Source: Candidatus Cloacimonadota bacterium
GTDB taxonomy: Bacteria > Cloacimonadota > Cloacimonadia > Cloacimonadales > JAIOQZ01
Assembly: GCA_021108395.1 (NCBI GenBank)
Contig: JAIOQZ010000032.1
Span: 202,434 to 266,433 of the forward strand
Length of the DNA stretch: 64,000 nt
Direction: 5' to 3'
Shown here: positions 5,087 through 49,554 of the stretch, piece by piece
How positions within the stretch are numbered: position 1 is the stretch's first letter
Layout of the letters: each line of letters starts with the position of its first letter
Notes under the pieces: generated by a model
Databases searched by the model: none
The model's input: the letters and a program-made list of their open reading frames with translations, nothing else
Told to the model about the DNA's origin: nothing
Position numbers and translations under genes: made by a program

Positions 5087-6304
5087 ATGATTCGTACCGT
5101 CATTGTTTTGTTTCTGGCAACCTGCATTCCATGCGCCTGCGCTTGGCTGCCCCCCAATCCTGCATACATCACCCCCAGCGCGCCACCTCAGACCGAAATC
5201 GCCGCCGAGCAATCCACACAGCCGCCACTCGCCACAGCGAGCGAACAAGTCCCGCCAGAGCCGCTGCCAGAAGCCAGCGAGCCGCCGCCGGGGACGGAAC
5301 CACCCGTTGAGTACGAACCGCCGCCAGAGCCACCCCGTCATCTCACTGTGGCCGCCGTGGGCGACATCATGCTGGGAACCGACTTCCCAGAGGCGCACTA
5401 TCTGCCGTCCGCCGATGGCCGCGGCCTGCTGGACAGCGCCCTCATCGAATTGCTGGCGAGCGCCGATGTGGCGCTGGGCAATCTCGAAGGCGTCTTTTGC
5501 GATGGAGGAGAACCTCGCCTGCCCAACAAGACCTACAGCTTTCGCATGCCGCCGCGCCTGGCGCCGCGACTCGCCGAATGGGGCTTCGATTTTGTCAGCC
5601 TGGCCAACAACCACGCCCGTGACTTCGGTGACGACGGCTGCGCGCAGACAATCGCCGCTTTGCAGGCGGTCGGAATTGTCTATGCCGGGCTTGAGGAACA
5701 CCCCACCGCCGTGCTGCGCCGCAATGGACTGCGCGTGGGCTTTGCAGCCTTCGCGCCCAACGCAGGAACGGTGAATTTTCATCGCCAGGCGGAAGCGCGG
5801 CGCATCGTGGCCGCTCTGGCAGACAGTTGCGACATCGTGCTGGTGAGCGTTCATGGCGGGGCCGAGGGCGCCGACGCCTTGCATGTGCCCCGTGAAGAAG
5901 AGATGTATCTGGGCGAGAACCGCGGCGACATCTACGCCTTTGCGCGGCTGGTTATCGACGCGGGCGCGGACGCCGTGTTTGCGCACGGACCGCATGTGCC
6001 CCGTGCCCTCGACCTCTACAACGAGCGCATCATCGCCTACAGTCTGGGTAACTTCTGCACACCGGCGCGGTTCAATCTGTCGGGCACAGGCGGCCTGGCT
6101 CCGCTGCTGCTGGTGGAGCTGGACGAGGCGGGGCGTTTCGTGTCGGGCCAGCTTGTCTCGTGCAGGCAGGCCTATGGTCGCGGCCCGCGCCTTGATGACA
6201 CCCGCGAAGCCGCCGCGCTCATTGGCGACCTCACCCGCGAAGACATCCCAGAAGCGCCGCTGCGCATCGAGGCGGACGGGCGTGTCTGGCCGGTGGTGGA
6301 ATAG
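5087..6304 (+). CDS. CapA-family (PGA_cap, metallophosphatase-fold) protein, paralogue 1
   Basis: VAAVGDIMLG, LGNLEGV, SLANNHARDFG, VSVHGGAEG, FAHGPHV, YSLGNF. SD GGAGG before the ATG. N-terminal signal-like segment followed by a Pro/Glu-rich linker. Confidence 0.85.
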   Translation: MIRTVIVLFLATCIPCACAWLPPNPAYITPSAPPQTEIAAEQSTQPPLATASEQVPPEPLPEASEPPPGTEPPVEYEPPPEPPRHLTVAAVGDIMLGTDFPEAHYLPSADGRGLLDSALIELLASADVALGNLEGVFCDGGEPRLPNKTYSFRMPPRLAPRLAEWGFDFVSLANNHARDFGDDGCAQTIAALQAVGIVYAGLEEHPTAVLRRNGLRVGFAAFAPNAGTVNFHRQAEARRIVAALADSCDIVLVSVHGGAEGADALHVPREEEMYLGENRGDIYAFARLVIDAGADAVFAHGPHVPRALDLYNERIIAYSLGNFCTPARFNLSGTGGLAPLLLVELDEAGRFVSGQLVSCRQAYGRGPRLDDTREAAALIGDLTREDIPEAPLRIEADGRVWPVVE

Positions 6305-6363
6305 CTTGACTGTTTCGTACGAGATGCAGTTGACTGAACACATACTTTGAGTGGAGGACGACA

Positions 6364-6840
6364 ATGAAGAATATCGCAATGAGTTGTTTGGTATCGTTAC
6401 TGATATTGCTGCCGGTGACACTTTCCAGCAATGAGGAGCCACTGAACGCGATAGAGGTTTTTCATAAGAATCAGCCCCCGTCTCTACAGACACTGGAGAA
6501 GGTAAACGGCCTTCTCGACGAGTATAGCGGCGAATATGAAATGACATTCTACAACATAAGCGATTCCGTAAATATCGCCCTGATCAGGGAATACAATCTG
6601 CCGGACACTCATTTTCCGTTTGCGGTTGTAGTTAACGGCAACTACTCGGCAGAAATCGATGGCAGGAAGGTGGATTTTGTCCATTTCCCTTTGTTCATGC
6701 ACGGTATCGGACGACATGAGGGTAACTGGTCGCTGAATGACTTGAGCGCTGTACTGGACGATAACTCGTTGCTGCTTGAAGAAAACATTCTGCCCGTTTT
6801 AGAGGATGACGAGGACAGCGAAGACGAATGCCTCGAGTGA
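6364..6840 (+). CDS. Hypothetical exported protein with acidic C-terminal tail
   Basis: Signal-like N-terminus MKNIAMSCLVSLLILLPVTLSS and C-terminus EDDEDSEDECLE. No catalytic motif recognised. Confidence 0.55.
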   Translation: MKNIAMSCLVSLLILLPVTLSSNEEPLNAIEVFHKNQPPSLQTLEKVNGLLDEYSGEYEMTFYNISDSVNIALIREYNLPDTHFPFAVVVNGNYSAEIDGRKVDFVHFPLFMHGIGRHEGNWSLNDLSAVLDDNSLLLEENILPVLEDDEDSEDECLE

Positions 6841-6940
6841 GATTTACGAGTAAACAGTCTTAAGGGCTTCCAGCCACAGTTAAGTTAACGCTATCATTAT
6901 TCGGAAGTACTACACATTACCCAGCTTGTACCACCTTTTT

Positions 6941-6986
6941 CACCCCCCTGTCAAGGGGGGAAGCCGCGAAAGCGGCAGGGGGGTAT
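6941..6986 (-). repeat. R-module repeat, copy R1 (inverted relative to R2/R3)
   Basis: cacccccctgtcaaggggggaagccgcgaaagcggcaggggggtat. This is the reverse-complement counterpart of the 46-nt core of R2/R3. The inner hairpin is GCCGC-GAAA-GCGGC. Confidence 0.9.
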
Positions 6987-6998
6987 AATCCGCCTATT

Positions 6999-7382
6999 CT
7001 ATATTCCCAGCTCACATTTACGATTATTGATGCGTCTCAGCAGATCATCGCAAACACCTTCCAGATTCTGCATCACATCCCGATTCGAATAGCGTATAAC
7101 CGTGATGCCCTGCCGATGCAATTTATTTTCTCGTGACGCATCATAATCTTGTTTTTCTGCATGGTTATCCCCGTCGATTTCCACAGCCAGTTTCAAAGCA
7201 GCACAATAGAAATCCACGATGAAATCACCGATGGGTCGTTGCCGGGTGAACTTATAGCGTACAGTCTCTCGCCTGGATAATAGCTGTTTCCACATACGGA
7301 CTTCAGGGAGACAGCCCGAACGACGATTTTGTCGTGCATAATCTACGAGTTGTGGTCGGTATTTGAGATTTTTCTTTGGCAA
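6999..7382 (-). CDS. DUF559 (Vsr-like) endonuclease-domain protein
   Basis: RMWKQLLSRR..YKFTRQRPIGDFIVDFYC..KLAVEIDGDNH..ITVIRYSN matches the DUF559 signature as I remember it. The TTG start directly abuts repeat R2. Confidence 0.8.
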   Translation of the reverse strand: MPKKNLKYRPQLVDYARQNRRSGCLPEVRMWKQLLSRRETVRYKFTRQRPIGDFIVDFYCAALKLAVEIDGDNHAEKQDYDASRENKLHRQGITVIRYSNRDVMQNLEGVCDDLLRRINNRKCELGI

Positions 7383-7384
7383 AA

Positions 7385-7460
7385 ATACCCCCCTGCGGCG
7401 TTGCCGCTTCCCCCCCTTGACAGGGGGGTGTAAATCGGATGCAAACCGGTCACACCGGGT
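7385..7460 (+). repeat. R-module repeat, copy R2 (46-nt core plus a 19-nt conserved tail)
   Basis: atacccccctgcggcgttgccgcttcccccccttgacaggggggtg ... caaaccggtcacaccgggt. About 89 percent identical to R3 over 76 nt by hand alignment. Confidence 0.9.
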
Positions 7461-7500
7461 ACATTACCGTAATCTCACAGCCTTTGAACACCCCATCGAT

Positions 7501-7546
7501 GTTACCTATGTCCCCGGTTCAATCTGTAACCCATGTGAGCAGTTTG
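7501..7546 (+). repeat. S-module repeat, copy S1
   Basis: tgtccccggttcaatctgtaacccatgtgagcagtttg (7509-7546) matches 54783-54820 at 34 of 38 positions without gaps. It is preceded by the related sub-repeat gttacctatg. Confidence 0.85.
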
Positions 7547-7605
7547 TTGCAACTTCAAATTCACAATGTACTTAGCAATTGCATGTAGATATATGTGCTG
7601 GTTTG

Positions 7606-8163
7606 TTATTTTCTGCTACTCAGGACTAATGTCGATGGCAACGGGAATGAAGTAGGCAATAATTCGATTCTGAATGGTAATCCCATATTCGATAATTCTT
7701 CCATCTTCATATTCATCAGACTATTTACTACACAATAATTATGAACCAGCTTCAAGTAGCGTCGAATAATCATCAACGGCAGGAAATGGTCTTTATCTTT
7801 CATCCACTCCATCAAATCTTTTTTTCCCTTTGAACTGTTACAAGATTTACAGGCATAGACTAAATTATCGGCATTGTCTGTTCCCCCGTATTTCTTCGGA
7901 AAAATGTGGTCCATAGACAGATTGGAATTTGAGCCGCAATAGTTACAAATTTGCCCTGTTTCCAATTTAATTTTTTCGTCATCAAATATTGTTCTCATGT
8001 TCATAGTTCCATTTTTCAGACCTTTGAATAATTTAGCTCTTATCATAAAATTCAACCTTGAATATCTATCTTGTTTCTTTTTAACTGCCATATGAGCCAT
8101 AGCTAAATTCGCATACGACCAATATATTTTATCGCAGACTATTTCAATATTCTGTTTTGCCAT
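7606..8163 (-). CDS. HNH (His-Me finger) endonuclease
   Basis: CNYCGSNSNLSMDHIFPKKYGGTDNADNLVYACKSCNSSKG (CxxC..DH..N..CxxCN). SD-like GAGGAAG just upstream of the ATG. Codon usage is strongly AT-rich, unlike the flanks. Confidence 0.85.
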   Translation of the reverse strand: MAKQNIEIVCDKIYWSYANLAMAHMAVKKKQDRYSRLNFMIRAKLFKGLKNGTMNMRTIFDDEKIKLETGQICNYCGSNSNLSMDHIFPKKYGGTDNADNLVYACKSCNSSKGKKDLMEWMKDKDHFLPLMIIRRYLKLVHNYCVVNSLMNMKMEELSNMGLPFRIELLPTSFPLPSTLVLSSRK

Positions 8164-8312
8164 TTACTTCCTCACGATATATGTAATTGCCCACAATGTT
8201 TCTCACTGCCACGTTCTTCGACATGCGACTTCTACTTTGTCCCAGAAACTCAAACCTGTTACCCATGTCATGATAATAAACTGAGTACCATGTATTGGAC
8301 TTGACATGAATG

Positions 8313-8387
8313 ATACCCCCCTGCGGCGTTGCCGCTTCCCCCCTTGACAGGGGGGTGAACCCCCGGTACAAACCGGTCACACCGGGT
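8313..8387 (+). repeat. R-module repeat, copy R3 (direct repeat of R2)
   Basis: atacccccctgcggcgttgccgcttccccccttgacaggggggtg ... caaaccggtcacaccgggt. It ends 3 nt before the stop codon of the XdhC-like gene. Confidence 0.9.
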
Positions 8388-8390
8388 GCG

Positions 8391-9197
8391 CTACTTCAAA
8401 CTCCCCACATCCTCCACCCCATTATACACCCCCAGCATCTCGGCGGCAATGGCTACGGCAATCTCGGCGGCGGTGGTGCGCGCCACGTTCAGCCCGATGG
8501 GTGCATGCACCCGCGACAGCCAGTCGGCCGCATCATCCACTTGTTCTTCGATGGCCGCGAACGTGGCCGCCACCTTGCGTTTGCTGCCAATCATGCCGAT
8601 GTATGCGCAGTCAACGCGGCGTGCGCAGAGCGTGCGCAGGATGTCGAGGTCGGCGCCGTGGCCGTGGGTGAAGATGATCACCGCGTCATGCGAGCCAGGC
8701 GAGAACGTGGCGGCGTAGTCGGCGTAATCGACAGTGTCGAAGGCGCTGGCCTGCGGGATGCGCTCGATCGTGGCCATGCCGGGGCGGTCGTCGAGCGCCA
8801 CCACGTGGAAGCCGACGCTACGCAGAATGGGCGCAAGCGCCTGGCATAGGTGCCCCGCGCCGAACAGAAAGGCCCGTCGCGCCGCCGGGATGTGTTCGAG
8901 GAAGACGCGGATGTCGCCGCCGCAGGCCATGCCGAGTCCATCTGCGTCCTCTGTGAGGGTGTAGGTGAGCAGCGCCGTGCCGCCGTCTTGCAGCAACTCG
9001 CGGGCTTTCTGCGTCACCACACGCTCCACATTGCCGCCGCCAACGGTGCCGCGTGTTTCGCCGTTTGCACACACCAGCAGCTTGAATCCCGGCCTGCCGG
9101 GCATACTCCCAGCCGCTTCGACGACCGTGCACAGCACATAGCCCTCGCCGGATTCGCTCAGTCCGGCGGCCAGACGCAGAACGTCGGCGGGGTTCAT
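8391..9197 (-). CDS. XdhC/CoxI-family accessory protein
   Basis: GYVLCTVVEAAGSMPGRPGFKLLV..GTVGGGNVE (XdhC_CoxI block) and FLFGAGHLCQALAPILRSVGFHVVALDDRP (Rossmann-like C-terminal block). Confidence 0.8.
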   Translation of the reverse strand: MNPADVLRLAAGLSESGEGYVLCTVVEAAGSMPGRPGFKLLVCANGETRGTVGGGNVERVVTQKARELLQDGGTALLTYTLTEDADGLGMACGGDIRVFLEHIPAARRAFLFGAGHLCQALAPILRSVGFHVVALDDRPGMATIERIPQASAFDTVDYADYAATFSPGSHDAVIIFTHGHGADLDILRTLCARRVDCAYIGMIGSKRKVAATFAAIEEQVDDAADWLSRVHAPIGLNVARTTAAEIAVAIAAEMLGVYNGVEDVGSLK

Positions 9198-10981
9198 GCG
9201 TCGGCCCCGTAGCGTATTCGCATAACGTTCAGCAACTTATCGAGCCGGTGACGGTAGGTGTGCGCCCGCAGAATTGATTCCCGCCCCGCCTGCGCGATGC
9301 GCCTGCGTTCGTCCTCGTGACCGAGGTAATAACTTACAAGGTCGGGTATCTCGTTCACATCGTTGAAGAACACGACGTCGCTGCCGTTGCCCGTGAAGAT
9401 TTCGTCGAGCTGCGCTTTGTAGTCGGTGAGCAGGAAAGCGCCGCAGGCCGGCGCGTCGAACACGCGCTGATTGACGGCGTTTTTCATCTGGCGACTGGTC
9501 ATGTTGAAGTTGAGGCGCGACTGGTTATACAGCGTGGCCAGGCCGTCGTAGTACATCACCTCGCGGTGGATGTGATAGCGGCCGTCGCGCAGCAGGTCGT
9601 CCCAGTTTGGGTCGCCGAAGATGTCGGGATAGAACGGCGCCAGCTTGTCCAGTCCGCCCAGACGGTAAACCTGCGTGGCGCGCCAGAGCACGGCGGCCAG
9701 GAAGTCCTCGCGCTGGTCGTCGCTGTCGAAGCGGTAGGTCTCGCCCTCGCGTTCGAGCGCATCCATCGCGTCGGGCACATAGCGCGTGTCGAGTTCGAGG
9801 AAGCGCAGCGCGGTCGGTTCCAGCTGGCGCAGCAGGTCGGGCCTGTACACCAGTCGCCGCAGGTTCTTGTGTGTGCTATAGACCATGCTCGAACCAACGA
9901 AACTTATGTCATAACGCTGCGGCAGTTCCAGCGGACGGAACAGCGATGGCAGCGTAGCCAGCGGCAGGTAGTCCACGTGCGGGTAGCCGCGTTGGTGCAC
10001 GTCGTCGATGTAATCGCGGTCCCACACGAAGATGCTGCACCAGTCGCTGACGTTGGTGCCGCTCTCGGACAGGACGATGGTGGGGCTGTCCACGTACCAC
10101 GAGGCGTAGGGGATTTCAAGCTCGCTCAACAGCTCGGTGAGGCGGCCTTCCTGGTCGAAGCCGAGGTGGTTGATGGTGAGCACGAAGTCGGGACGGAACT
10201 CGGCGATGAGCGAGAGAAAGCTGCGCACAAACTCGGCGTAGTCGTAGTTGTCGCGGTCGATGTGCACGTAGCGCACTTGCTGTCCAAGCCCGTTGAGCGT
10301 TTCGAGGCATTCTTTGGTCAGCACGTAGCCGCTGTCGATGAAGATAATGCGTGCCTGCGGCGTGGCGAACTTGCGGTAGCGCCAGCGGTCGCTCAGCTCG
10401 TAGGCGGGGCGGCCCTCGAGGCGTTGCTTCACCTGGGCGAAGTAATCGGGCAGCAGCCTGGTGCGCGCCGTCAGCTCGACGATGTCGTACCCGCCCGGGC
10501 GAACAGCGGCCAGTCGCGGCGCCTCGAAGCTCTCGTGTCCCACGATGTAGGTCACGCGCCCGCCCAGCGCTCGCAGGCTTGTGTGATGCAGCGCCAGGTT
10601 GAACAGGTGCTTGTCCGGCTCGATGACCACCAGGCACCCCAGGTGCTTCTGCGCCAGCGACTGCAAATGGTAGCCTAAACCTATGCCCAGCACGACGAGC
10701 GTGTCGTGTGCGGGGACGAGAGCGGCGGCGAGTTTGGCAGCGTCACGGACGGGGTAGTAGGGCGAGTGGACGGTCTGCCGTTGCTCGCCGAATTGCAGCA
10801 CGAGCGCGGGCAGTTCTTCGCGGCTGGGCGGTGTTTGCCAGTCGGCGTCCCAGCGGCACCAGCCCGGCTTGATGTGGACGTCGGTGCGCATTTGCAGGTA
10901 GGCGTGGTTGTCGTCGAAGAGGTTCATGTTCCATCCCGAAGCAGTTTTCGTTAGATAGCCGAAGAGCGTTAGTTTTGTCAA
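9194..10981 (-). CDS. CgeB-family / DUF3880-type glycosyltransferase-like protein
   Basis: The C-terminal block NQRVFDAPACGAFLLTD..VVFFNDVNEIPDLVSYYLGHEDERRRIAQAGRESILRAHTYRHRLDKLL resembles the CgeB/Glyco_trans_1_2 signature. The listed start is TTG; an internal ATG at 10927 is possible. Its stop overlaps the XdhC-like start (ATGA, 9194-9197). Confidence 0.7.
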   Translation of the reverse strand: MTKLTLFGYLTKTASGWNMNLFDDNHAYLQMRTDVHIKPGWCRWDADWQTPPSREELPALVLQFGEQRQTVHSPYYPVRDAAKLAAALVPAHDTLVVLGIGLGYHLQSLAQKHLGCLVVIEPDKHLFNLALHHTSLRALGGRVTYIVGHESFEAPRLAAVRPGGYDIVELTARTRLLPDYFAQVKQRLEGRPAYELSDRWRYRKFATPQARIIFIDSGYVLTKECLETLNGLGQQVRYVHIDRDNYDYAEFVRSFLSLIAEFRPDFVLTINHLGFDQEGRLTELLSELEIPYASWYVDSPTIVLSESGTNVSDWCSIFVWDRDYIDDVHQRGYPHVDYLPLATLPSLFRPLELPQRYDISFVGSSMVYSTHKNLRRLVYRPDLLRQLEPTALRFLELDTRYVPDAMDALEREGETYRFDSDDQREDFLAAVLWRATQVYRLGGLDKLAPFYPDIFGDPNWDDLLRDGRYHIHREVMYYDGLATLYNQSRLNFNMTSRQMKNAVNQRVFDAPACGAFLLTDYKAQLDEIFTGNGSDVVFFNDVNEIPDLVSYYLGHEDERRRIAQAGRESILRAHTYRHRLDKLLNVMRIRYGADA

Positions 10982-11086
10982 GTATTCCTCATATTCAGTT
11001 GCCTTCCGACGACACAGTTGACGAAATCATTGTAACGGTGTTCTTCGAATTTAGTTATTTCTAGTGACTTACACAAAAAGGAGGCA

Positions 11087-11245
11087 ATGATTATGTCTAA
11101 GAAATCGCCAATGACTGGGAAAGCTTCTTCTAGAATCCAAAGTTCTGGTGCGAAAAATCCAGGTGGAGCTACAAGCAAAACCGGCTTTGCTTCCCGTGCA
11201 CAGCGAGGTGCTGCAAAAAACAGTGGCAATTCTTCAAAGAAATGA
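11087..11245 (+). CDS. Unlisted small ORF (52 aa), basic and Ser/Gly/Lys-rich, with an internal duplicated motif
   Basis: Hand translation: MIMSKKSPMTGKASSRIQSSGAKNPGGATSKTGFASRAQRGAAKNSGNSSKK. Strong SD AAAGGAGG lies 3-9 nt upstream. Internal repeat ASSRIQSSGAKN / FASRAQRGAAKN. It is below the 60-aa cutoff of the ORF track. Confidence 0.6.
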   Translation: MIMSKKSPMTGKASSRIQSSGAKNPGGATSKTGFASRAQRGAAKNSGNSSKK

Positions 11246-13940: not shown

Positions 13941-14007
13941 ACTCCCTCACCCGGTTTCGCTGAGCTCAACCACAGAATGAAGGCCTTTCACGGCTCAGCT
14001 CACATAC

Positions 14008-14358
14008 TCACCTCACGAAACAATCCCAAGATGTAGAAGACCATTGAAAAGTGGGGATTGCAGGGATTGGTGGAAGGTTTGGGATGGGTGGAATTGGTGG
14101 GATATAGGGTATAGGTGGAATAGGTGGAATACACGGGACAGGAAGTATTGGACCACCAGTTGCTCCTTTGATAAAAGCAACAGCTGCACCTTGATGATCA
14201 CGGAAGAATCCCTTGTTGAAGATGCCTAAATGGTTGCCATTATAGGAGAATAGGTTGGATCTGTTGATAAACGCAACATGCTCTCCTGACATGCTCAGTA
14301 TTGCATTTTCCTTCAGCCAGCTTACAACAGAACCGTTTCTATTGTATATAGGTTGCAT
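14008..14358 (-). CDS. 4-fold beta-flower-like repeat protein with an (I/L)PP-repeat tail
   Basis: Four ~16-aa units: IYNRNGSVVSWLKENA / ILSMSGEHVAFINRSN / LFSYNGNHLGIFNKGF / FRDHQGAAVAFIKGAT. These are followed by GGPILPVPCIPPIPPIPYIPPIPPIPNLPPIPAIPTFQW. SD GGAGG sits 5 nt upstream. AT-rich. Confidence 0.7.
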   Translation of the reverse strand: MQPIYNRNGSVVSWLKENAILSMSGEHVAFINRSNLFSYNGNHLGIFNKGFFRDHQGAAVAFIKGATGGPILPVPCIPPIPPIPYIPPIPPIPNLPPIPAIPTFQWSSTSWDCFVR

Positions 14359-14388
14359 ATAACCTCCAAGCAGTGAGTGATGTGCAGA

Positions 14389-15135
14389 TTAGTCTGAAAT
14401 ATCCAATATATGCTCTCTTGCAGCTTGAGCAACGATATCTTTTAAGCAAAGAACAGATGTTGGAAGATGTTCATCATTCGTCTCATCATGCTCCCAGCAA
14501 ATTAGGACATCTACTTCATCAGGTCTATGATTCCCAATGAAATCGCGAGACCTAATCTTGAACTCTGCAATGAGATATTGAGATGTGTTCCGATCAATTA
14601 ATATTGCATCTGGTTTTGCTCTGGATGACCCATCATCTCTTTGCTCTCCATAGTAATTGGGGAGCAGATTCTGAATAAGTGATTCAGAGGTTCCAGCGCA
14701 GTATTTGAATTCGGTGAGATCTTGGATACTTCCAAATATCATGTATAGATCTGTCTCATATCGAGGCATCCAAGTCTCGTGAAGCAATGGAGTATAATGC
14801 TCTATGTGTATATGCTTTGCATGTTGTCTATCTAGCACTGTTTGGGCGGCTTCTGGTTTTTCGTATTGGACTATTTCAGGTAGAATTATCAAAATTAAGT
14901 GATTTGATTTTGAGTACTTAACTTCAACTTTGTTTTTGTCCTTAAGATCTGGAAAAGACTCATAGAGCTTGCTTAGTCCAGTAATGACATGAGTGTAAAT
15001 AAGTTTCCCCTTCATTTCTACGTCTTCCTCATGGCCTTTGACTTGGACATTGATTCTACCAGGCTCAAGATTGTACTTCCGAACGAAACTTGCTCCTAAA
15101 TGAAGTGACATTATTTCCTTATACAATTTGGCCAT
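14389..15135 (-). CDS. Hypothetical protein with a C-terminal PD-(D/E)xK (restriction-endonuclease-fold) motif
   Basis: KPD(195)AILIDRNTSQYLIAE(210)FK(212), then VDVLICWEHD (numbering from the listed 267-aa ORF). ATG 15135 with SD AGGAGG is preferred over the listed start at 15192. AT-rich. No adjacent methyltransferase. Confidence 0.65.
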   Translation of the reverse strand: MAKLYKEIMSLHLGASFVRKYNLEPGRINVQVKGHEEDVEMKGKLIYTHVITGLSKLYESFPDLKDKNKVEVKYSKSNHLILIILPEIVQYEKPEAAQTVLDRQHAKHIHIEHYTPLLHETWMPRYETDLYMIFGSIQDLTEFKYCAGTSESLIQNLLPNYYGEQRDDGSSRAKPDAILIDRNTSQYLIAEFKIRSRDFIGNHRPDEVDVLICWEHDETNDEHLPTSVLCLKDIVAQAAREHILDISD

Positions 15136-15324
15136 CTCACCACCTCCTGTCCAGATTTCAACAATCCTGCTTTTCTCTCTTCTTTTCGTCAAGATAAAAC
15201 TCGTTTCTGGACAAAATCAACTATAGTTAATCCAACAACTTGCGCCATTCCTCCTCTCCTCGTTGCTAATTACTACCTGCTAATTGCTAATTGATATTGA
15301 CAGCTTTCCCTCCACGCGCAAACT

Positions 15325-15410
15325 TAGTTTGTACGGGGGTGCTCCGGTTGGGGCTGAGAACATACCCTTTGAACCTGTACGGGTAATGCCGGCGTAGGGA
15401 GCAGCATTTC
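15325..15410 (+). promoter_or_regulatory. TPP (THI-box) riboswitch
   Basis: ACGGGGGTGC..GGGCTGAGA..ACCCTTTGAACCTG..GGGTAATGCC..GCGTAGGGA matches the conserved THI-box core. It lies about 60 nt upstream of thi4. Boundaries are approximate. Confidence 0.9.
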
Positions 15411-15469
15411 TCAACCACCAGCCCACCCTCTCGAGTAGTATGCACAAAATACACATAGAGGGGGACTTA

Positions 15470-42629: not shown

Positions 42630-44564
<1,935 letters not shown>

Positions 44565-44608: not shown

Positions 44609-46912
44609 ATGAGAAAGAAAAGATCCGAATCAAGGTCACGATATTTTATTCGAGATCAATCTGAGAAAAGGGGGTGGAATCTACAACATCCTGCGCGAAA
44701 TGGAGATTGTTTAGAAGAACAAGAGATTGTTGATTTTTTTCCTGATATCGGACTGGGGCTTGGCCGCCCCGATTTCTTGCTATGCAGAAATGGTTTACCC
44801 GCGTTAGTTATCGAAGCAAAAAATGAAGCTGGTAAAATTGAAAAAGCAATCAATGAAGCGATAGATTACGCGAACACAATCAACACGGCAGGAAATTACA
44901 CAATCAAGATAGCAGTTGGGGCTGCAGGGGAAGAAAATCATGGATTTGTTGTGGAAGTGCGATACTTGCAGGATAATTTGTGGAAACCACTTAAATACAA
45001 CGGTTATGAGATAACAACGATCCCCTCTAAAAGAGAGGTTGATAGAGCTTTGCTTGCTGATGACGCTACAACAAGTGTAGAACCACCGTCGGTTGAAGAA
45101 TTCATTGCTACAGCAATCGAATTAAGTAAAATCCTGCGATTATCGAAAATAGAGGCATCCCTTAGGCCAAAAGTTATTGGGGCTCTAACTCTCGCTATGT
45201 ATCAAGGGGATATTAATACAAGAAGCGAAAGGTCTCTACATAGTATTAACAAACTTTTAGAGGATGCTATTAATGGATTAGTAGATTTAACTGACGAAAA
45301 ACGAGATAGACTCTCTGAATCTCTCAGGCTTCCGAGTGCCGATTATGATAGGCTTAGTTCTTATATTGCTAAAATAGTGCATTTGCTTCGAGGTTTGAAT
45401 ATCTGTGCCGTGCTTCAAACTGACACTGATTTCCTTGGTTTATTTTACGAAGCATTTCTTCGTTATGGATATGATAATAAAGCACTTGGTATCGTTTTCA
45501 CGCCAAGGCATATCACAAATTTCTGTTCTGAACTTGTCAGTGTGAAACCGACAGACAAAGTGATTGATATTGCATGTGGCACAGGTGGTTTTCTTGTTGC
45601 AGCTTTCGACAGAATGATGGCTGCTGCTCATGGGCCTAAAGCAATACTGAAAGTGAAGAAGAGTCTTTGTGGTTTTGATACAAACCCAACAATATGGGCA
45701 TTGGCAACTCTCAATATGTTTTTTCGAGGTGACGGTAAAACGCACATAGAATATCAAAGTTGTTTTAATGAACAATCAAAGAAGGCAGTTGCTGATTCTT
45801 TTACGAAAGCATTTCTGAATCCACCATTTTCACAGGAAGGTGAGCCGGAGCGAGACTTCATTGATGCATCTATGCAGGCCTTAGAGCCAGAAGGTATTCT
45901 CGTTTCGGTTGTAAAGGCGGGTATTTTTGCAGATGATGAGCATAAAAAATGGAGAAAAGAATTTACGCGAAATCATACCATTCTTGGAATGATAAGTCTC
46001 CCTGAAGATCTTTTTTATCCAACGGCTGCCCAAACTACGATATTAATTGCATTGGCTCATGTTCCACATCCCACTGACGGAAGAATCTTTATGGCCAGAA
46101 TATGGAATGATGGATTTGAGAAATTGAAAGGAAAACGAGTGCAAGTTGAAGGTAGTCAATTGCATTCAACAGTGGAGGCTTTTCATAAAGCAATGGCGGG
46201 AGATTGTGTAGAAAGTGTTAATGCCGTTACAGTTTCATCAGAATTAGTTGTTAGTGGAAATGAATGGAGTCCTCAGCAGTGGCTACCTCAACAAGAAGAG
46301 TCAGAAATGGGGATGGAAAAATTGAAAAAAGATGTTCGCATTTCGATATTCAGGGCTGTTACGATGTTGCCAGAACTTGCTGATTGCGTTATAGGTGGTT
46401 TTAGTGAATCATGGGAAAATAATGGGAAACTTGAGCTTGATAAATCAGAAGCTGTAAGTTACTTTTTTCATGTAATAAATGGAAAATCTAGAGGAGAAAA
46501 AAACTATCGAGAAGGCTCAATCCCCTATATATCTAGTGGTGACACCTCAAACAGTATTATTAGAACAATTGACCCAGAAGACGGTGAGGTTTTTGAGAGT
46601 GGTGGTATTACTGTTACAGCTTTTGGGCAAGCGTATATGCAACCTTGGGCATTCATGGCAAGGGGTAATGGTGGCAGTGCGGTTCGTGTCCTGATTCCTA
46701 AATTCGACATGACAGTAAATGATCTGATCTGGTTTGCAGCTCAGATAAATTCACAGAAATGGCGTTTCTTTTATGCTCGGATGGCAATTAAATCTCGCCT
46801 TCAGAGACTAGTAGTAACTAGCCCACATAGCAGATTGAAGGATAGCGGAAAGAAAATTGAAAACAGAGTGCGTGAATTTAAAAAACTACTATACAAACTT
46901 AGTGAAACATGA
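44609..46912 (+). CDS. Single-polypeptide restriction-modification enzyme (type IIG-like: HsdR-N-type nuclease, gamma-class N6-adenine methyltransferase, HsdS-like target-recognition region)
   Basis: N-terminus RPD(55)FLLCRNGLPALVIE(69)AK(71)NE. Methyltransferase motif I VIDIACGTGGFLVAAF and motif IV NPPF. The C-terminal ~230 aa resemble half of an HsdS subunit (GKSRGEKNYREGSIPYISSGD). SD GGAGGTGAG. Strongly AT-rich compared with gyrB and gyrA. Confidence 0.8.
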   Translation: MRKKRSESRSRYFIRDQSEKRGWNLQHPARNGDCLEEQEIVDFFPDIGLGLGRPDFLLCRNGLPALVIEAKNEAGKIEKAINEAIDYANTINTAGNYTIKIAVGAAGEENHGFVVEVRYLQDNLWKPLKYNGYEITTIPSKREVDRALLADDATTSVEPPSVEEFIATAIELSKILRLSKIEASLRPKVIGALTLAMYQGDINTRSERSLHSINKLLEDAINGLVDLTDEKRDRLSESLRLPSADYDRLSSYIAKIVHLLRGLNICAVLQTDTDFLGLFYEAFLRYGYDNKALGIVFTPRHITNFCSELVSVKPTDKVIDIACGTGGFLVAAFDRMMAAAHGPKAILKVKKSLCGFDTNPTIWALATLNMFFRGDGKTHIEYQSCFNEQSKKAVADSFTKAFLNPPFSQEGEPERDFIDASMQALEPEGILVSVVKAGIFADDEHKKWRKEFTRNHTILGMISLPEDLFYPTAAQTTILIALAHVPHPTDGRIFMARIWNDGFEKLKGKRVQVEGSQLHSTVEAFHKAMAGDCVESVNAVTVSSELVVSGNEWSPQQWLPQQEESEMGMEKLKKDVRISIFRAVTMLPELADCVIGGFSESWENNGKLELDKSEAVSYFFHVINGKSRGEKNYREGSIPYISSGDTSNSIIRTIDPEDGEVFESGGITVTAFGQAYMQPWAFMARGNGGSAVRVLIPKFDMTVNDLIWFAAQINSQKWRFFYARMAIKSRLQRLVVTSPHSRLKDSGKKIENRVREFKKLLYKLSET

Positions 46913-46998: not shown

Positions 46999-49554
46999 AT
47001 GATACACGACAGATCGCGGATTGAGACCGTCGAAATCGAGGACGTACTCAAGAAGGCGTACCTGGAATATTCTATGAGCGTCATCGTGTCGAGGGCACTT
47101 CCCGACGCACGCGACGGCCTCAAGCCATCCCAGCGGCGCATCCTGTACGCCATGCACGAGCTAAACCTGCAACCCGGCAAAGGCTTCCGCAAATGCGCCA
47201 AGATTGCCGGCGACACCTCGGGTAACTATCACCCGCACGGCGAGCAGGTCATCTATCCCACGCTGGTGCGCATGGCGCAGCCGTGGAGCCTGCGCAACAT
47301 GCTCATCCAGGGCCAGGGCAACTTCGGCTCGCAGGACGGCGACCCGCCGGCGGCCATGCGTTACACCGAGGCTCGCCTACAGGCCGCGGCCGTCGAGCTT
47401 ATGGCCGACCTCGACAAAGACACCGTTGACTTCCGTTCCAACTACGACGACACCCGCAAAGAGCCGGTCGTATTTCCTTCCAGGTTCCCCAACCTGCTGG
47501 TCAACGGCAGTTCGGGCATCGCCGTTGGTATGGCCACCAATATGCCGCCGCACAACTGCGGCGAGATTTGCGACGCCATCACAGCGCTCATCGACAACCC
47601 CGAACTCGAGCCGCTGGATCTGCTCGAATACGTGAAAGGCCCCGACTTTCCCACCGGCGGCTACATCATCGGCAGCAAGGGCATCCGCGACTACTTTCTC
47701 ACCGGTCACGGCCGCATCATCATGCGTGGCAAGGCCGTCGTCGAGACCAAGAACAACGGCACCGAACTGATCGTCATCAGTGAAATTCCATATCAACTGA
47801 ACAAGACGCTGCTCATCAACCGCATCGTGAACCAGGTGAAAGAGCGCCGCATCGAAGGCATCTCCGACATCCGCGACGAGTCTGGCCGCCAGGGCATGCG
47901 CCTTGTCATCACCGTCAAGCGCAACTACGAGGCCGGCGCAGTTCTCAACAAGCTCTATAAATACTCGCAGCTCCAGGATTCCTTCAGCGTAAACAACCGT
48001 GCGCTGCTGCATGGCGAACCCAAGGTTGTCGGCCTCAAGGAGCTGATACAGTATTACATCGACTTCCGCCACGAGGTGGTGGTGCGTCGCACGAAGTTCG
48101 AGCTTGACGCAGCCGAGAAGCGGCTGCACATCCTCGAGGGTTATCGTATCGCGCTGGACAACATAGACGCTATCATCGCCACCATACGCGCCAGCAAGAC
48201 CACTCAGGAAGCCAACGAGAACTTGCAGAAGGCGTTCAAGCTGTCCGAGATACAGGCAAAGGCTATCCTCGAAATGCGTCTGCAAAAGCTTACCGGCCTC
48301 GAACGCGAGAAGGTCGAAGAGGAATATCGCAGCATCGTGAAGACGGTCGATCACCTGCGCAAGATACTGTCCGACGTGGGCATGCGCATGGGCATCATCA
48401 AGAGTGAAACGGACGGGATTCGCAGTAAATACGCCGACATGCGTCGCACAGTCATCCTCGAAGGCTCCGCCGACATCGAGACCGAAGACATGATTGCCGA
48501 CGAAGATATGGTCGTCACCATCAGCCACCAGGGCTACATCAAGCGTCTGCCGGTGGATACATACCGCAAGCAGGGTCGTGGCGGCAAGGGCCTGGCCGGC
48601 GGCAACCTCAAGGACGAGGACTTCGTCGAGAGTATCTTTGTGGCCAGCACCCACGCTTACATACTGTTCTTCACCGATTTTGGCAAGTGCTACTGGCTCA
48701 AGGTGCACCGCATTCCACGCCTGGGGCGCCTGGCGCGTGGCAAGGCTGTGGTGAACCTGCTGCAGCTCGAGCAGAGTGAGCGCGTCGAGGCGTTCGTGAC
48801 CGTACGCGACTTCGAGCAGCCGCACTTCATCACCATGGTGACCAGGAACGGCATCGTGAAGAAGAGTGCCCTGAACGCATTTGCGCGCCCCCGTAGCACC
48901 GGCATCATCGCCATCAGGCTCATCGACGGCGATCAGCTCATTGACGCCCAGATTACCGATGGCGGCAACGACATCATCCTGGCCACCCGCGACGGCTTCG
49001 CCAACCGCTTCGCCGAGTCCGATGTGCGCTCGGTGGGCCGTGCTTCGCAGGGCGTTCGCGGCATCCGACTGCGCGAGACTGACCGTGTTGTGGCGATGGT
49101 TGTGGTGCGCCGCGAGGGCACGCTGCTGTCCATCAGCGAGAACGGCTTTGGCAAGCGAACTCTCATCAGCAGCTACAAAAATACGCATCGCGGCTCGAAG
49201 GGCGTCATCACCCTGAAAACCACCGATCGCAACGGCCACCTGGTGTGCCTGCTCGAGGTGGTGGACAACGACGACCTCATCATCGTCAGCCGCGGGGGCA
49301 TGATCATTCGCCAGGCAGTCGAGAAAATATCCGTCATCGGGCGCAACACCCAGGGAGTGAAGCTCATCGAGCTGCGTGCTAACGACAAGGTTTACGACGT
49401 CACGCGAATCGCTTCGGAAGAAGAAGATGACGACGACGAAGAATCAATTGACGAAACCGCCGCGACAGTGGATGCTGACGGAGAATCTTCCGGCAAGGAC
49501 GGTGGCGCCGATGAAACGACAATGCCCGACACAGATGTCGAGGACCAAGAGTAG
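46999..49554 (+). CDS. gyrA: DNA gyrase subunit A (with an acidic C-terminal tail)
   Basis: [54 protein letters not shown], and beta-pinwheel repeats. C-terminus EEEDDDDEE... Confidence 0.97.

Follow-up and report, generated by a model that had tools for sequence, protein, structure and literature searches.

The window analysed here, a stretch of 64,000 nucleotides from a Candidatus Cloacimonadota bacterium (contig JAIOQZ010000032.1, positions 202,434 to 266,433), carries downstream of an XdhC-family gene an islet with two small nuclease genes and three copies of a structured repeat. Both nuclease genes lie on the minus strand and are intact. The first (6999–7382; 127 aa, TTG start) encodes a DUF559/Vsr-like PD-(D/E)XK nuclease, and the second (7606–8163; 185 aa, ATG start) a stand-alone HNH nuclease with a beta-beta-alpha-Me fold and a CCCC zinc site. 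A first-pass annotation had proposed this pair of open reading frames (ORFs), and both the ORF calls and the Pfam matches agree with it. Sequence comparison indicates that the DUF559 ORF and the repeat arms on its two sides form one portable unit, conserved across phyla, and that the repeat belongs to the DUF559 gene.

Copy A of the repeat (6937–6990) reads on the plus strand as C-run, TGTCAA, G-run, mini-hairpin GCCGC-GAAA-GCGGC and G-run; in the DUF559 unit it is the inverted arm on the downstream side, with the block order C-C-G in the sense of the gene. Copy B (7385–7476, minus strand) is the upstream arm and reads, in the sense of the gene, C-run, TGTCAA, G-run, GCGGC-AAC-GCCGC and G-run, with a 45-nt extension that holds a CCGG hairpin. 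Copy C (8313–8403, minus strand) is a direct copy of B and overlaps the last 13 nt of XdhC. The first-pass annotation had held that the same structured repeat delimits both nuclease genes, and this is borne out: A and B are inverted around DUF559 (6937–6986 and 7385–7434, 84 per cent complementary over 50 nt), and B and C are direct around HNH, with the first 31 nt identical and the next 66 nt 79 per cent identical. An exact 18-nt core, CCCCCCTTGACAGGGGGG, is present in A, B and C and nowhere else in the 64 kb (0 expected in shuffles), so that all three copies of the repeat in the window lie in the islet; the same core is multi-copy in many other metagenome-assembled genomes (MAGs). Three of the five C5-loop-G5 hairpins of the window are likewise in the islet.

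The inner mini-hairpins of A and of B/C (GCGGC-AAC-GCCGC) differ by compensatory changes. The predicted fold of the arm has two hairpins and leaves the last G-run unpaired; this terminal AGGGGGG ends 5 nt before the TTG start of DUF559, in a position like that of a Shine–Dalgarno sequence, and the last G-run probably serves as the ribosome-binding site of the gene. The TTGACA of the hairpin loop was considered as a −35 box and rejected, as loops vary freely among relatives and no consistent −10 box follows. Rfam gave no match in the islet, either at gathering thresholds or at E-values up to 5, and the repeat is therefore no curated RNA family. The same search found no intron RNA family; no intein was present, and the ORFs are free-standing.

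BoxC/PIT repeats have been known since the 1990s, with their function and means of spread unexplained, and the repeat of the window resembles them, a likeness that the first-pass annotation had not recognized. BoxC was given new descriptions, as potential intrastrand triplex (PIT) elements and as triplex motifs, named TMECO in E. coli, whose consensus is CCCTCNCCC-N3-6-GGGNGAGGG-N3-GGGNGAGGG (PMC4666352). Holder et al. (Nucleic Acids Research, NAR, 2015; PMC4666352) found the motifs to be widespread in bacteria, also as inverted pairs, with higher local variability among E. coli strains and with no transposase, integrase or other mobility activity nearby; endonucleases and DUF559 are not mentioned there. 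All three copies in the window have the three blocks of at least 6 nt that define such motifs (C6-7/G6-7/G6). They share with BoxC, PIT and TMECO elements the block order C-G-G (C-C-G on the other strand), the intergenic position, the wide distribution in bacteria, the occurrence singly or as inverted pairs and the variable DNA nearby. They differ in that their blocks are pure C6-7/G6-7 runs and not CCCTCNCCC, and in the second spacer, which is 1–6 nt in TMECO and 17–19 nt here, where it closes into a mini-hairpin of 13–15 nt. Because of this long spacer we call the repeat BoxC/PIT-like only, and triplex formation is a prediction. A further difference is that the BoxC/PIT literature reports neither an associated gene nor a mobility function, whereas in the window a unit with a nuclease gene has the motif as its inverted ends.

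Free-standing DUF559 proteins, E. coli YcjD included, are among the commonest bacterial endonuclease-like proteins of unassigned function. The 127-aa protein of the window matches PF04480 (DUF559) at an E-value of 1e-29 and 102.9 bits (cut-off 20.6), over profile positions 4–108 of 109; Pfam also assigns MTES_1575 to it, and not Vsr. YcjD and the N. gonorrhoeae protein NGO0050 (Protein Data Bank, PDB, entry 3HRL), which the window protein matches at E 1.4e-18, have the same domain over the full length. It belongs to the ‘IVDFYC’ clade and is not a YcjD orthologue, since its score against the YcjD equivalog NF007294 (74.7 bits) lies under the cut-off of 218. VSR, DUF559 and DUF2726 form one clade of the fold superfamily (PMC3424549). 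A Vsr-type repair system would include a Dcm-type C5-cytosine methyltransferase, and none is present in the islet or within ±10 kb of it. The first-pass annotation had allowed for the loss of catalytic residues. This is not the case: family-invariant residues are kept in both nucleases, among them D57, E68, D70 and H74 of DUF559, which with others are invariant in an alignment of 27 sequences.

An exact-protein look-up of the DUF559 ORF returned no record; an identical 127-aa protein is annotated by NCBI (P0001), which supports the TTG start. The same region is present in the ENA assembly ERZ26872896 as NODE_3 (L001), where the DUF559 ORF (10782–11162) is uncalled and a 48-aa out-of-frame ORF is called instead. 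Several plasmid matches to the clade (H1–H5) likewise lack an annotated gene. Non-ATG starts and read-through into the repeat make members of this clade easy to miss or to mis-start.

We fetched 160 loci encoding DUF559 relatives, 80 viral and 80 metagenomic. Many of the approximately 60 closest DUF559 homologues, which come from different phyla, have called termini of the type PPCQGG, PPDKGG(K/E)GG, PPLVRGG or SPDKGRAGEG. PPCQGG is the exact translation of the 18-nt core, and the other motifs are translated C-run/loop/G-run hairpins. Within 200 nt of the gene, a C5-loop-G5 hairpin was found upstream in 29 of 77 metagenome loci and downstream in 26 of 76, against 4 in 166 kb elsewhere in these loci. 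Inverted repeats that place an arm on either side of the DUF559 gene and score at least 14 were present at 54 of 108 loci and in 1 of 368 shifted controls. The orientation of the blocks is biased, with C-G-G predominating upstream (73/132 loci; C-C-G in 31/132) and C-C-G downstream (53/116; C-G-G in 21/116). After dereplication to 128 clusters, the upstream C-G-G-type motif was found in 64 of 120 (53 per cent) and the inverse motif downstream in 48 of 109 (44 per cent), as compared with 5–7 per cent of 105 intergenic segments taken from elsewhere on the same contigs.

The spacer between the G-runs holds a mini-hairpin in 36 arms, the type to which the window repeat belongs, and is at most 7 nt long in 33 arms. 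The mini-hairpins have 20 different stems, a covariation which indicates that they are kept as structures while their sequence varies. The terminal G-run stands 6–8 nt ahead of an in-frame start in about 20 other loci. The closest relative (L303, 60 per cent identity) is laid out in the same way, its loop pair being TGGGAA/TTCCCA, and in a Rickettsiales MAG rich in repeats the DUF559 gene has the C-G-G motif upstream. DUF559 relatives are rare on plasmids and the HNH family is absent from them, and we therefore rejected plasmid carriage as the usual vehicle.

Some MAGs (L009–L121) hold the 18-nt core in a great many copies, among them those of Nitrospinota, Poribacteria, Entotheonella and Burkholderiales, a ‘Rhizobium’ MAG, and the isolates jk18x34bins.43 and p16x63bins.49. 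The copies in such genomes are often inverted pairs 35–100 nt apart, always with a second C-run upstream. A scan of viral sequences for the core gave six matches, none of them beside a DUF559 gene. Many DUF559 units of the viral collection (L129–L175, IMG/VR) lie near the ends of short (6–9 kb) predicted viral contigs cut from isolate genomes, which may reflect prophage-boundary calls and not phage genes.

The related elements measure 450–690 bp. Their arms (25–70 nt) abut or overlap the ends of the ORF, with approximately 350–430 nt between the arms in most of them; by analogy, the DUF559 unit of the window would extend over approximately 6937–7434, or about 0.5 kb. Five pairs of elements with 83–90 per cent nucleotide identity sit in unrelated flanks, and in three of them (L220/L227, 486 nt; L259/L281, 464 nt; L262/L279, 684 nt) the homology runs from the outer tip of the left arm to that of the right arm and no further. 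Several of these units have other copies of the motif around them. In one locus (L128, 4001–4477) a DUF559 unit exactly fills the junction between the solute-binding-protein and permease genes of an opp-like operon: the start as called overlaps the stop codon upstream, the stop of the unit overlaps the start that follows, and a palindromic motif pair lies upstream. No target-site duplication was seen by eye outside the arms in 26 elements or at the boundaries of the compared pairs. At three pairs of orthologous loci (L136/L147, L145/L160 and L148/L156) the flanks are approximately 91 per cent identical and the DUF559 gene 80–82 per cent, which suggests either that the unit evolves faster or that its alleles are replaced at a fixed site.

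A DUF559 gene and a described triplex motif also occur together in E. coli. In K-12, TMECO no. 9 (1,351,239–1,351,204) lies 165 nt downstream of ycjD (DUF559) on the same strand, and between the two are a partial hairpin and a duplicated 3′ fragment of ycjD (L289 4041–4828, corresponding to K-12 1351041–1351828). Of 5426 complete E. coli genomes, 3375 contain the ycjD segment. Where the whole segment is missing (2051 genomes), the match resumes approximately 40 nt past the motif, and the eefRABCD operon occupies the site (PMC12817139). A search of the available literature found no paper linking DUF559 or another nuclease gene to triplex repeats; as far as could be found, a DUF559 clade whose 0.5-kb unit has BoxC/PIT-like repeats as its inverted ends is undescribed so far.

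The second nuclease gene has a different relationship to the repeat. The HNH cassette (7477–8312, minus strand; 836 nt) lies between copies B and C and is thereby flanked by a 91-nt direct duplication of the upstream DUF559 arm and its extension. It looks like a separate arrival, a secondary insertion that duplicated one arm. An independent assembly with k=31 breaks at both repeats (Logan contig L002 corresponds to 7386–8342), and variants without HNH may exist in the population. The protein matches PF01844 (HNH) at E 9e-12 and 45.3 bits (cut-off 21.4) and keeps the family-invariant residues C73, C76, D85-H86, N100, C105, C108 and N109. The family is large, with more than 1000 full-length members at approximately 70 per cent identity in Bacteroidota, Margulisiibacteriota, Cloacimonadota and other groups, and its closest members are not generally associated with the repeat. 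The nearest copy, L122, shows 82 per cent nucleotide identity, which is confined to the ORF; no match extends beyond it, and the locus has no hairpins of this kind. One homologue (L297) lies between menC and menE, and another (L296) in a defence-like island with SLFN/AlbA_2, ResIII and T5orf172 genes. The HNH homologue at L297 4900–5010 is preceded by AACCCCTAAATCCCCTAAAGGGGAC, a C-C-G motif, a single case that could be due to chance. Among viral contigs, a query with the single protein found no relative, and one made with a profile turned up a single relative of full length; the family is all but absent there, and a phage origin of the HNH gene was rejected.

In a structure model of the HNH protein (predicted local distance difference test score, pLDDT, 71) the core alone matches solved structures, namely the Gme HNH nickase 4H9D, EcoKMcrA 6GHC and the HNH domains of Cas9 and IscB. 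The helical N- and C-terminal extensions gave no fold match (TM-score ≤0.28). All these nucleases have in common with the window protein the beta-beta-alpha-Me core, the CCCC zinc site and the DH...N...N residues; the window protein differs in having its own helical extensions and in lacking a RuvC domain, a guide-RNA partner and a McrA-type reader. Against the IscB/Cas9 model it scores 53 bits (cut-off 175), over the HNH region only, and no RuvC was found in its 185 aa. No recognizable modified-base reader domain is present either.

Both nuclease genes are, judged by composition, foreign to this high-GC Cloacimonadota genome. The HNH gene has 34 per cent GC (GC at third codon positions, GC3, 0.39), as the first-pass annotation had noted in calling it AT-rich, and DUF559 45 per cent (GC3 0.43); the neighbouring XdhC and PGA_cap genes have 66 per cent (GC3 0.74–0.81). 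The islet was correctly described as low in GC, and its start was placed too far to the right, at 6841. The low-GC segment really spans 6301–8350 (43 per cent GC) and takes in, as its left part, an uncharacterized 158-aa ORF on the plus strand (6364–6840; 47 per cent GC, GC3 0.59) with a signal-peptide-like N-terminus and an acidic tail, for which no match was found in Pfam, NCBIfam, PHROGs or PADLOC. On the other side stands the XdhC-family gene of the host flank (8391–9197, minus strand; 66 per cent GC), convergent with the 158-aa ORF and in the same direction as both nuclease genes, which makes read-through transcription from XdhC possible. A 78-aa ORF of the ORF list (8144–8380, minus strand) runs through repeat copy C (...PLSRGEAATPQGG...) and is probably translated repeat and no real gene.

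The first-pass annotation had found no methyltransferase, recombinase, intron or intein partner in the islet; this holds, and for the enzymes the statement can be extended, as no methyltransferase, recombinase, transposase or integrase was found within ±10 kb. A scan of the islet for promoters and terminators gave nothing above shuffles, save one promoter-like site inside the 3′ end of XdhC, and no T-tract terminators. Elsewhere in the window, a 767-aa ORF (44609–46912, plus strand; 40 per cent GC) with HSDR_N and N6_Mtase domains lies exactly between gyrB (42630–44564) and gyrA (46999–49554). It looks like a type IIG-like restriction–modification fusion and has no flanking C/G-run hairpins. 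A thiamine pyrophosphate (TPP) riboswitch (15325–15417, plus strand; 62.6 bits) is situated at the edge of a low-GC stretch (14001–15400), followed in L001 by Thi4, TMP-TENI and ThiC.

The first-pass annotation had suggested a comparison of the site with related genomes. In the nearest relative available (L290), which is distant (XdhC 71 per cent identical), the glycosyltransferase–XdhC pair is conserved; after it come a low-GC ORF unlike those of the window and, next, flagellar genes. The slot lacks both HNH and DUF559, and synteny also breaks there. The slot (L290 5200–6400; JGI Ga0226655_10000412) holds an unrelated 199-aa ORF with 33–41 per cent GC between CTCCCC...GGGGAG-type hairpins, CTCCCCTTTTGTAAAAGGGGAG and TTCCCTCCCCTGCATAAGGGAGGGAA. 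A more distant relative has yet other genes at this position. We therefore regard the slot as variable, and it may serve hairpin-bounded cassettes in general as a landing place.

The reading that we favour, with a probability of about 0.58, is that the islet consists of selfish nuclease cassettes which arrived independently, one after the other, in a variable, repeat-marked slot downstream of XdhC. The DUF559 nuclease would nick or cut at or beside structured repeats, solo or paired, in the form of a hairpin, cruciform or triplex. Host recombination or repair would then copy the arm–ORF–arm unit in beside or between repeats, in a homing-like manner. Such copying would explain both the presence of units among repeat arrays and the absence of target-site duplications, and it would fit the reported instability of BoxC loci and the fact that homing endonucleases of the Vsr-like kind exist (PMC2677866, PMC3239194). 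The HNH gene would have entered later, by Campbell-type recombination of repeat-bearing circular or donor DNA at the upstream arm, with duplication of the 91 nt. Of the first-pass proposal of ‘modular selfish or defence cassettes’, the modular and selfish part is retained and defence is less favoured; the two cassettes also turn out to differ, the repeat being tied to DUF559 only.

Several observations weigh against selfish cassettes. About half of the DUF559 relatives have no arms by the criteria used. Seen from the repeat, the tie is weak: among the matches listed, a DUF559 gene lies within 8 kb at only 1 of 113 genomic loci with the 18-nt core. In most close pairs of elements the flanks are shared too, which points to orthologous loci, vertical inheritance and slow turnover, and the elements show no target-site duplication. 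For the window itself no pair of empty and filled sites was found, the nearest relative being as distant as stated above. The HNH family is better conserved than is usual for a selfish gene. The second spacer of the window repeat falls outside the loop range of triplex motifs (1–6 nt in ITxF, 0–10 nt in Hoyne et al. 2000), the first loop measuring 6 nt. To our knowledge, no transposition chemistry is known for a lone 127-aa PD-(D/E)XK nuclease. Finally, it may be that the arms act only as signals for expression or insulation.

Among the other explanations, the one that survives best, which we nevertheless consider unlikely, is that BoxC/PIT-like repeats mark a fragile or recombinogenic hot spot and that the nucleases are incidental cargo without a functional tie to them. 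The motifs have indeed been linked to local instability in E. coli, with no mobility genes (PMC4666352). The nearest relative has an unrelated low-GC ORF between similar hairpins in the same slot, one HNH homologue also adjoins a C-C-G motif, and among the matches listed solo repeats vastly outnumber DUF559 genes. A hot spot leaves unexplained, however, the fixed orientation of the motifs (C-G-G upstream, C-C-G downstream), the arms that abut the ORF, the 6–7-fold excess over other intergenic DNA and the homology that ends at the arm tips in copies at unrelated sites. It is also at odds with the HNH family, which shows no general repeat association.

A smaller chance is given to a defence islet of solitary restriction-type nucleases, McrA-like and modification-dependent or methyl-directed, to which the repeats would be irrelevant. 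In PADLOC the HNH protein matches the PtuB and PDC-M01B models at E 4e-9 and the DUF559 protein matches mREase_II at 3e-5; however, these matches are at domain level only, and a partner such as PtuA is absent. The fold matches include EcoKMcrA, and yet no modified-base reader can be recognized in the HNH protein. One HNH homologue (L296) does lie in a defence-like island and the window also carries the type IIG-like fusion between gyrB and gyrA, but other homologues are found inside housekeeping operons, and the conserved arms are left unexplained. The evidence favours selfish over defence cassettes because the PADLOC matches are weak and homologues are placed inside opp-like and men operons.

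About equally improbable is a domesticated host factor comparable to the transposases associated with repetitive extragenic palindromes (REP), known as RAYTs: a single-copy DUF559 nuclease would act in trans on triplex or hairpin repeats and spread, maintain or resolve them. A nuclease gene within inverted structured repeats, together with many solo repeats, mirrors the REP/RAYT arrangement (REPtrons, REPINs), with which the window also shares GC-rich repeats and the lack of target-site duplication. Elements at orthologous loci are mostly inherited vertically, and ycjD is conserved within E. coli phylogroups. Against this, repeats are scarce away from the gene in most sampled contigs (4 per 166 kb), there are no other copies in the 64-kb window, and DUF559 is foreign here by composition. 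The RAYT protein, moreover, is an HUH/Y1 transposase of the IS200/IS605 family and the window gene encodes a Vsr-like PD-(D/E)XK nuclease. REP repeats are hairpins and those of the window are of the triplex type, and the unit of the window is foreign and portable where RAYT genes are kept vertically in single copy.

The arms may also be thought of as RNA-level signals only, that is, as a 5′ leader with a ribosome-binding site, a 3′ stabilizing hairpin or insulator, and ends of the mRNA that pair with each other. We hold this to be more doubtful still. The G-run before the TTG, its counterparts in about 20 other loci and the predicted fold that leaves it unpaired after two hairpins would all agree with such a role, as would the direction of the genes, shared with XdhC, and the lack of a promoter that stands out. 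The same motifs, however, abound as solo repeats without orientation to genes, and no T-tract terminators are present. The stems are, in addition, always C-runs and G-runs and not arbitrary pairs, which argues for recognition at the level of sequence or DNA. An integron-like cassette array (attC) or an assembly artefact at the repeat, suggested by small ORFs between structured repeats and by the breaks of the k=31 assembly, can be dismissed as highly improbable: copy A is inverted, the repeat lacks RYYYAAC/GTTRRRY cores and no integrase is encoded within ±10 kb, while two independent long assemblies (contigs of 308 and 285 kb) carry both genes, and longer k-mers resolve copies B and C because these differ after 31 nt.

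Selfish cassettes of the kind favoured here have partial counterparts among known elements. Vsr-like homing endonucleases of the EDxHD type (I-Bth0305I) are, like the DUF559 gene, small stand-alone foreign nuclease ORFs wedged between conserved genes or inside operons, and they belong to the fold superfamily of DUF559. The known ones are found in phage and environmental genes, in group I introns or at split-intein loci (Dassa et al. 2009, PMC2677866; Taylor et al. 2011, PMC3239194). Known homing endonuclease genes differ in having no inverted structured arms, and the intron or intein setting is absent at the window. Insertion sequences (IS) of the IS200/IS605 type and miniature inverted-repeat transposable elements (MITEs) resemble the unit in being short with structured ends, and IS200/IS605 elements also make no target-site duplication. 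The unit cannot be assigned to the DDE, IS or MITE elements, as no target-site duplication was seen, no HUH or DDE transposase is encoded, and its only ORF is the PD-(D/E)XK nuclease. We know of no IS family, among those of ISfinder, that uses a PD-(D/E)XK nuclease alone.

A more far-reaching proposal can be made only tentatively, and we think it less probable than its negation. The IVDFYC DUF559 nucleases might be the missing mobility or maintenance enzyme of BoxC/PIT repeats, and arm–DUF559–arm the autonomous form of a new, minimal class of prokaryotic mobile elements with non-B-DNA ends and no target-site duplication. Solo and paired BoxC-like repeats would then be its non-autonomous derivatives or its targets, in a manner comparable to RAYTs and REPINs.

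Two foreign nuclease genes in one islet are, taken alone, an ordinary find. The link between DUF559 and BoxC-like repeats, with its consistent orientation, abutting arms, sharp boundaries and spread over phyla, makes two items of unknown function jointly testable, under the hypotheses that the nuclease acts on the structured repeat and that the ends or targets of its gene are marked by the repeat. If it is true, the unit would be a very small mobile element with an unusual enzyme, and it would provide a mechanistic basis for the genomic instability reported at BoxC/PIT repeats.

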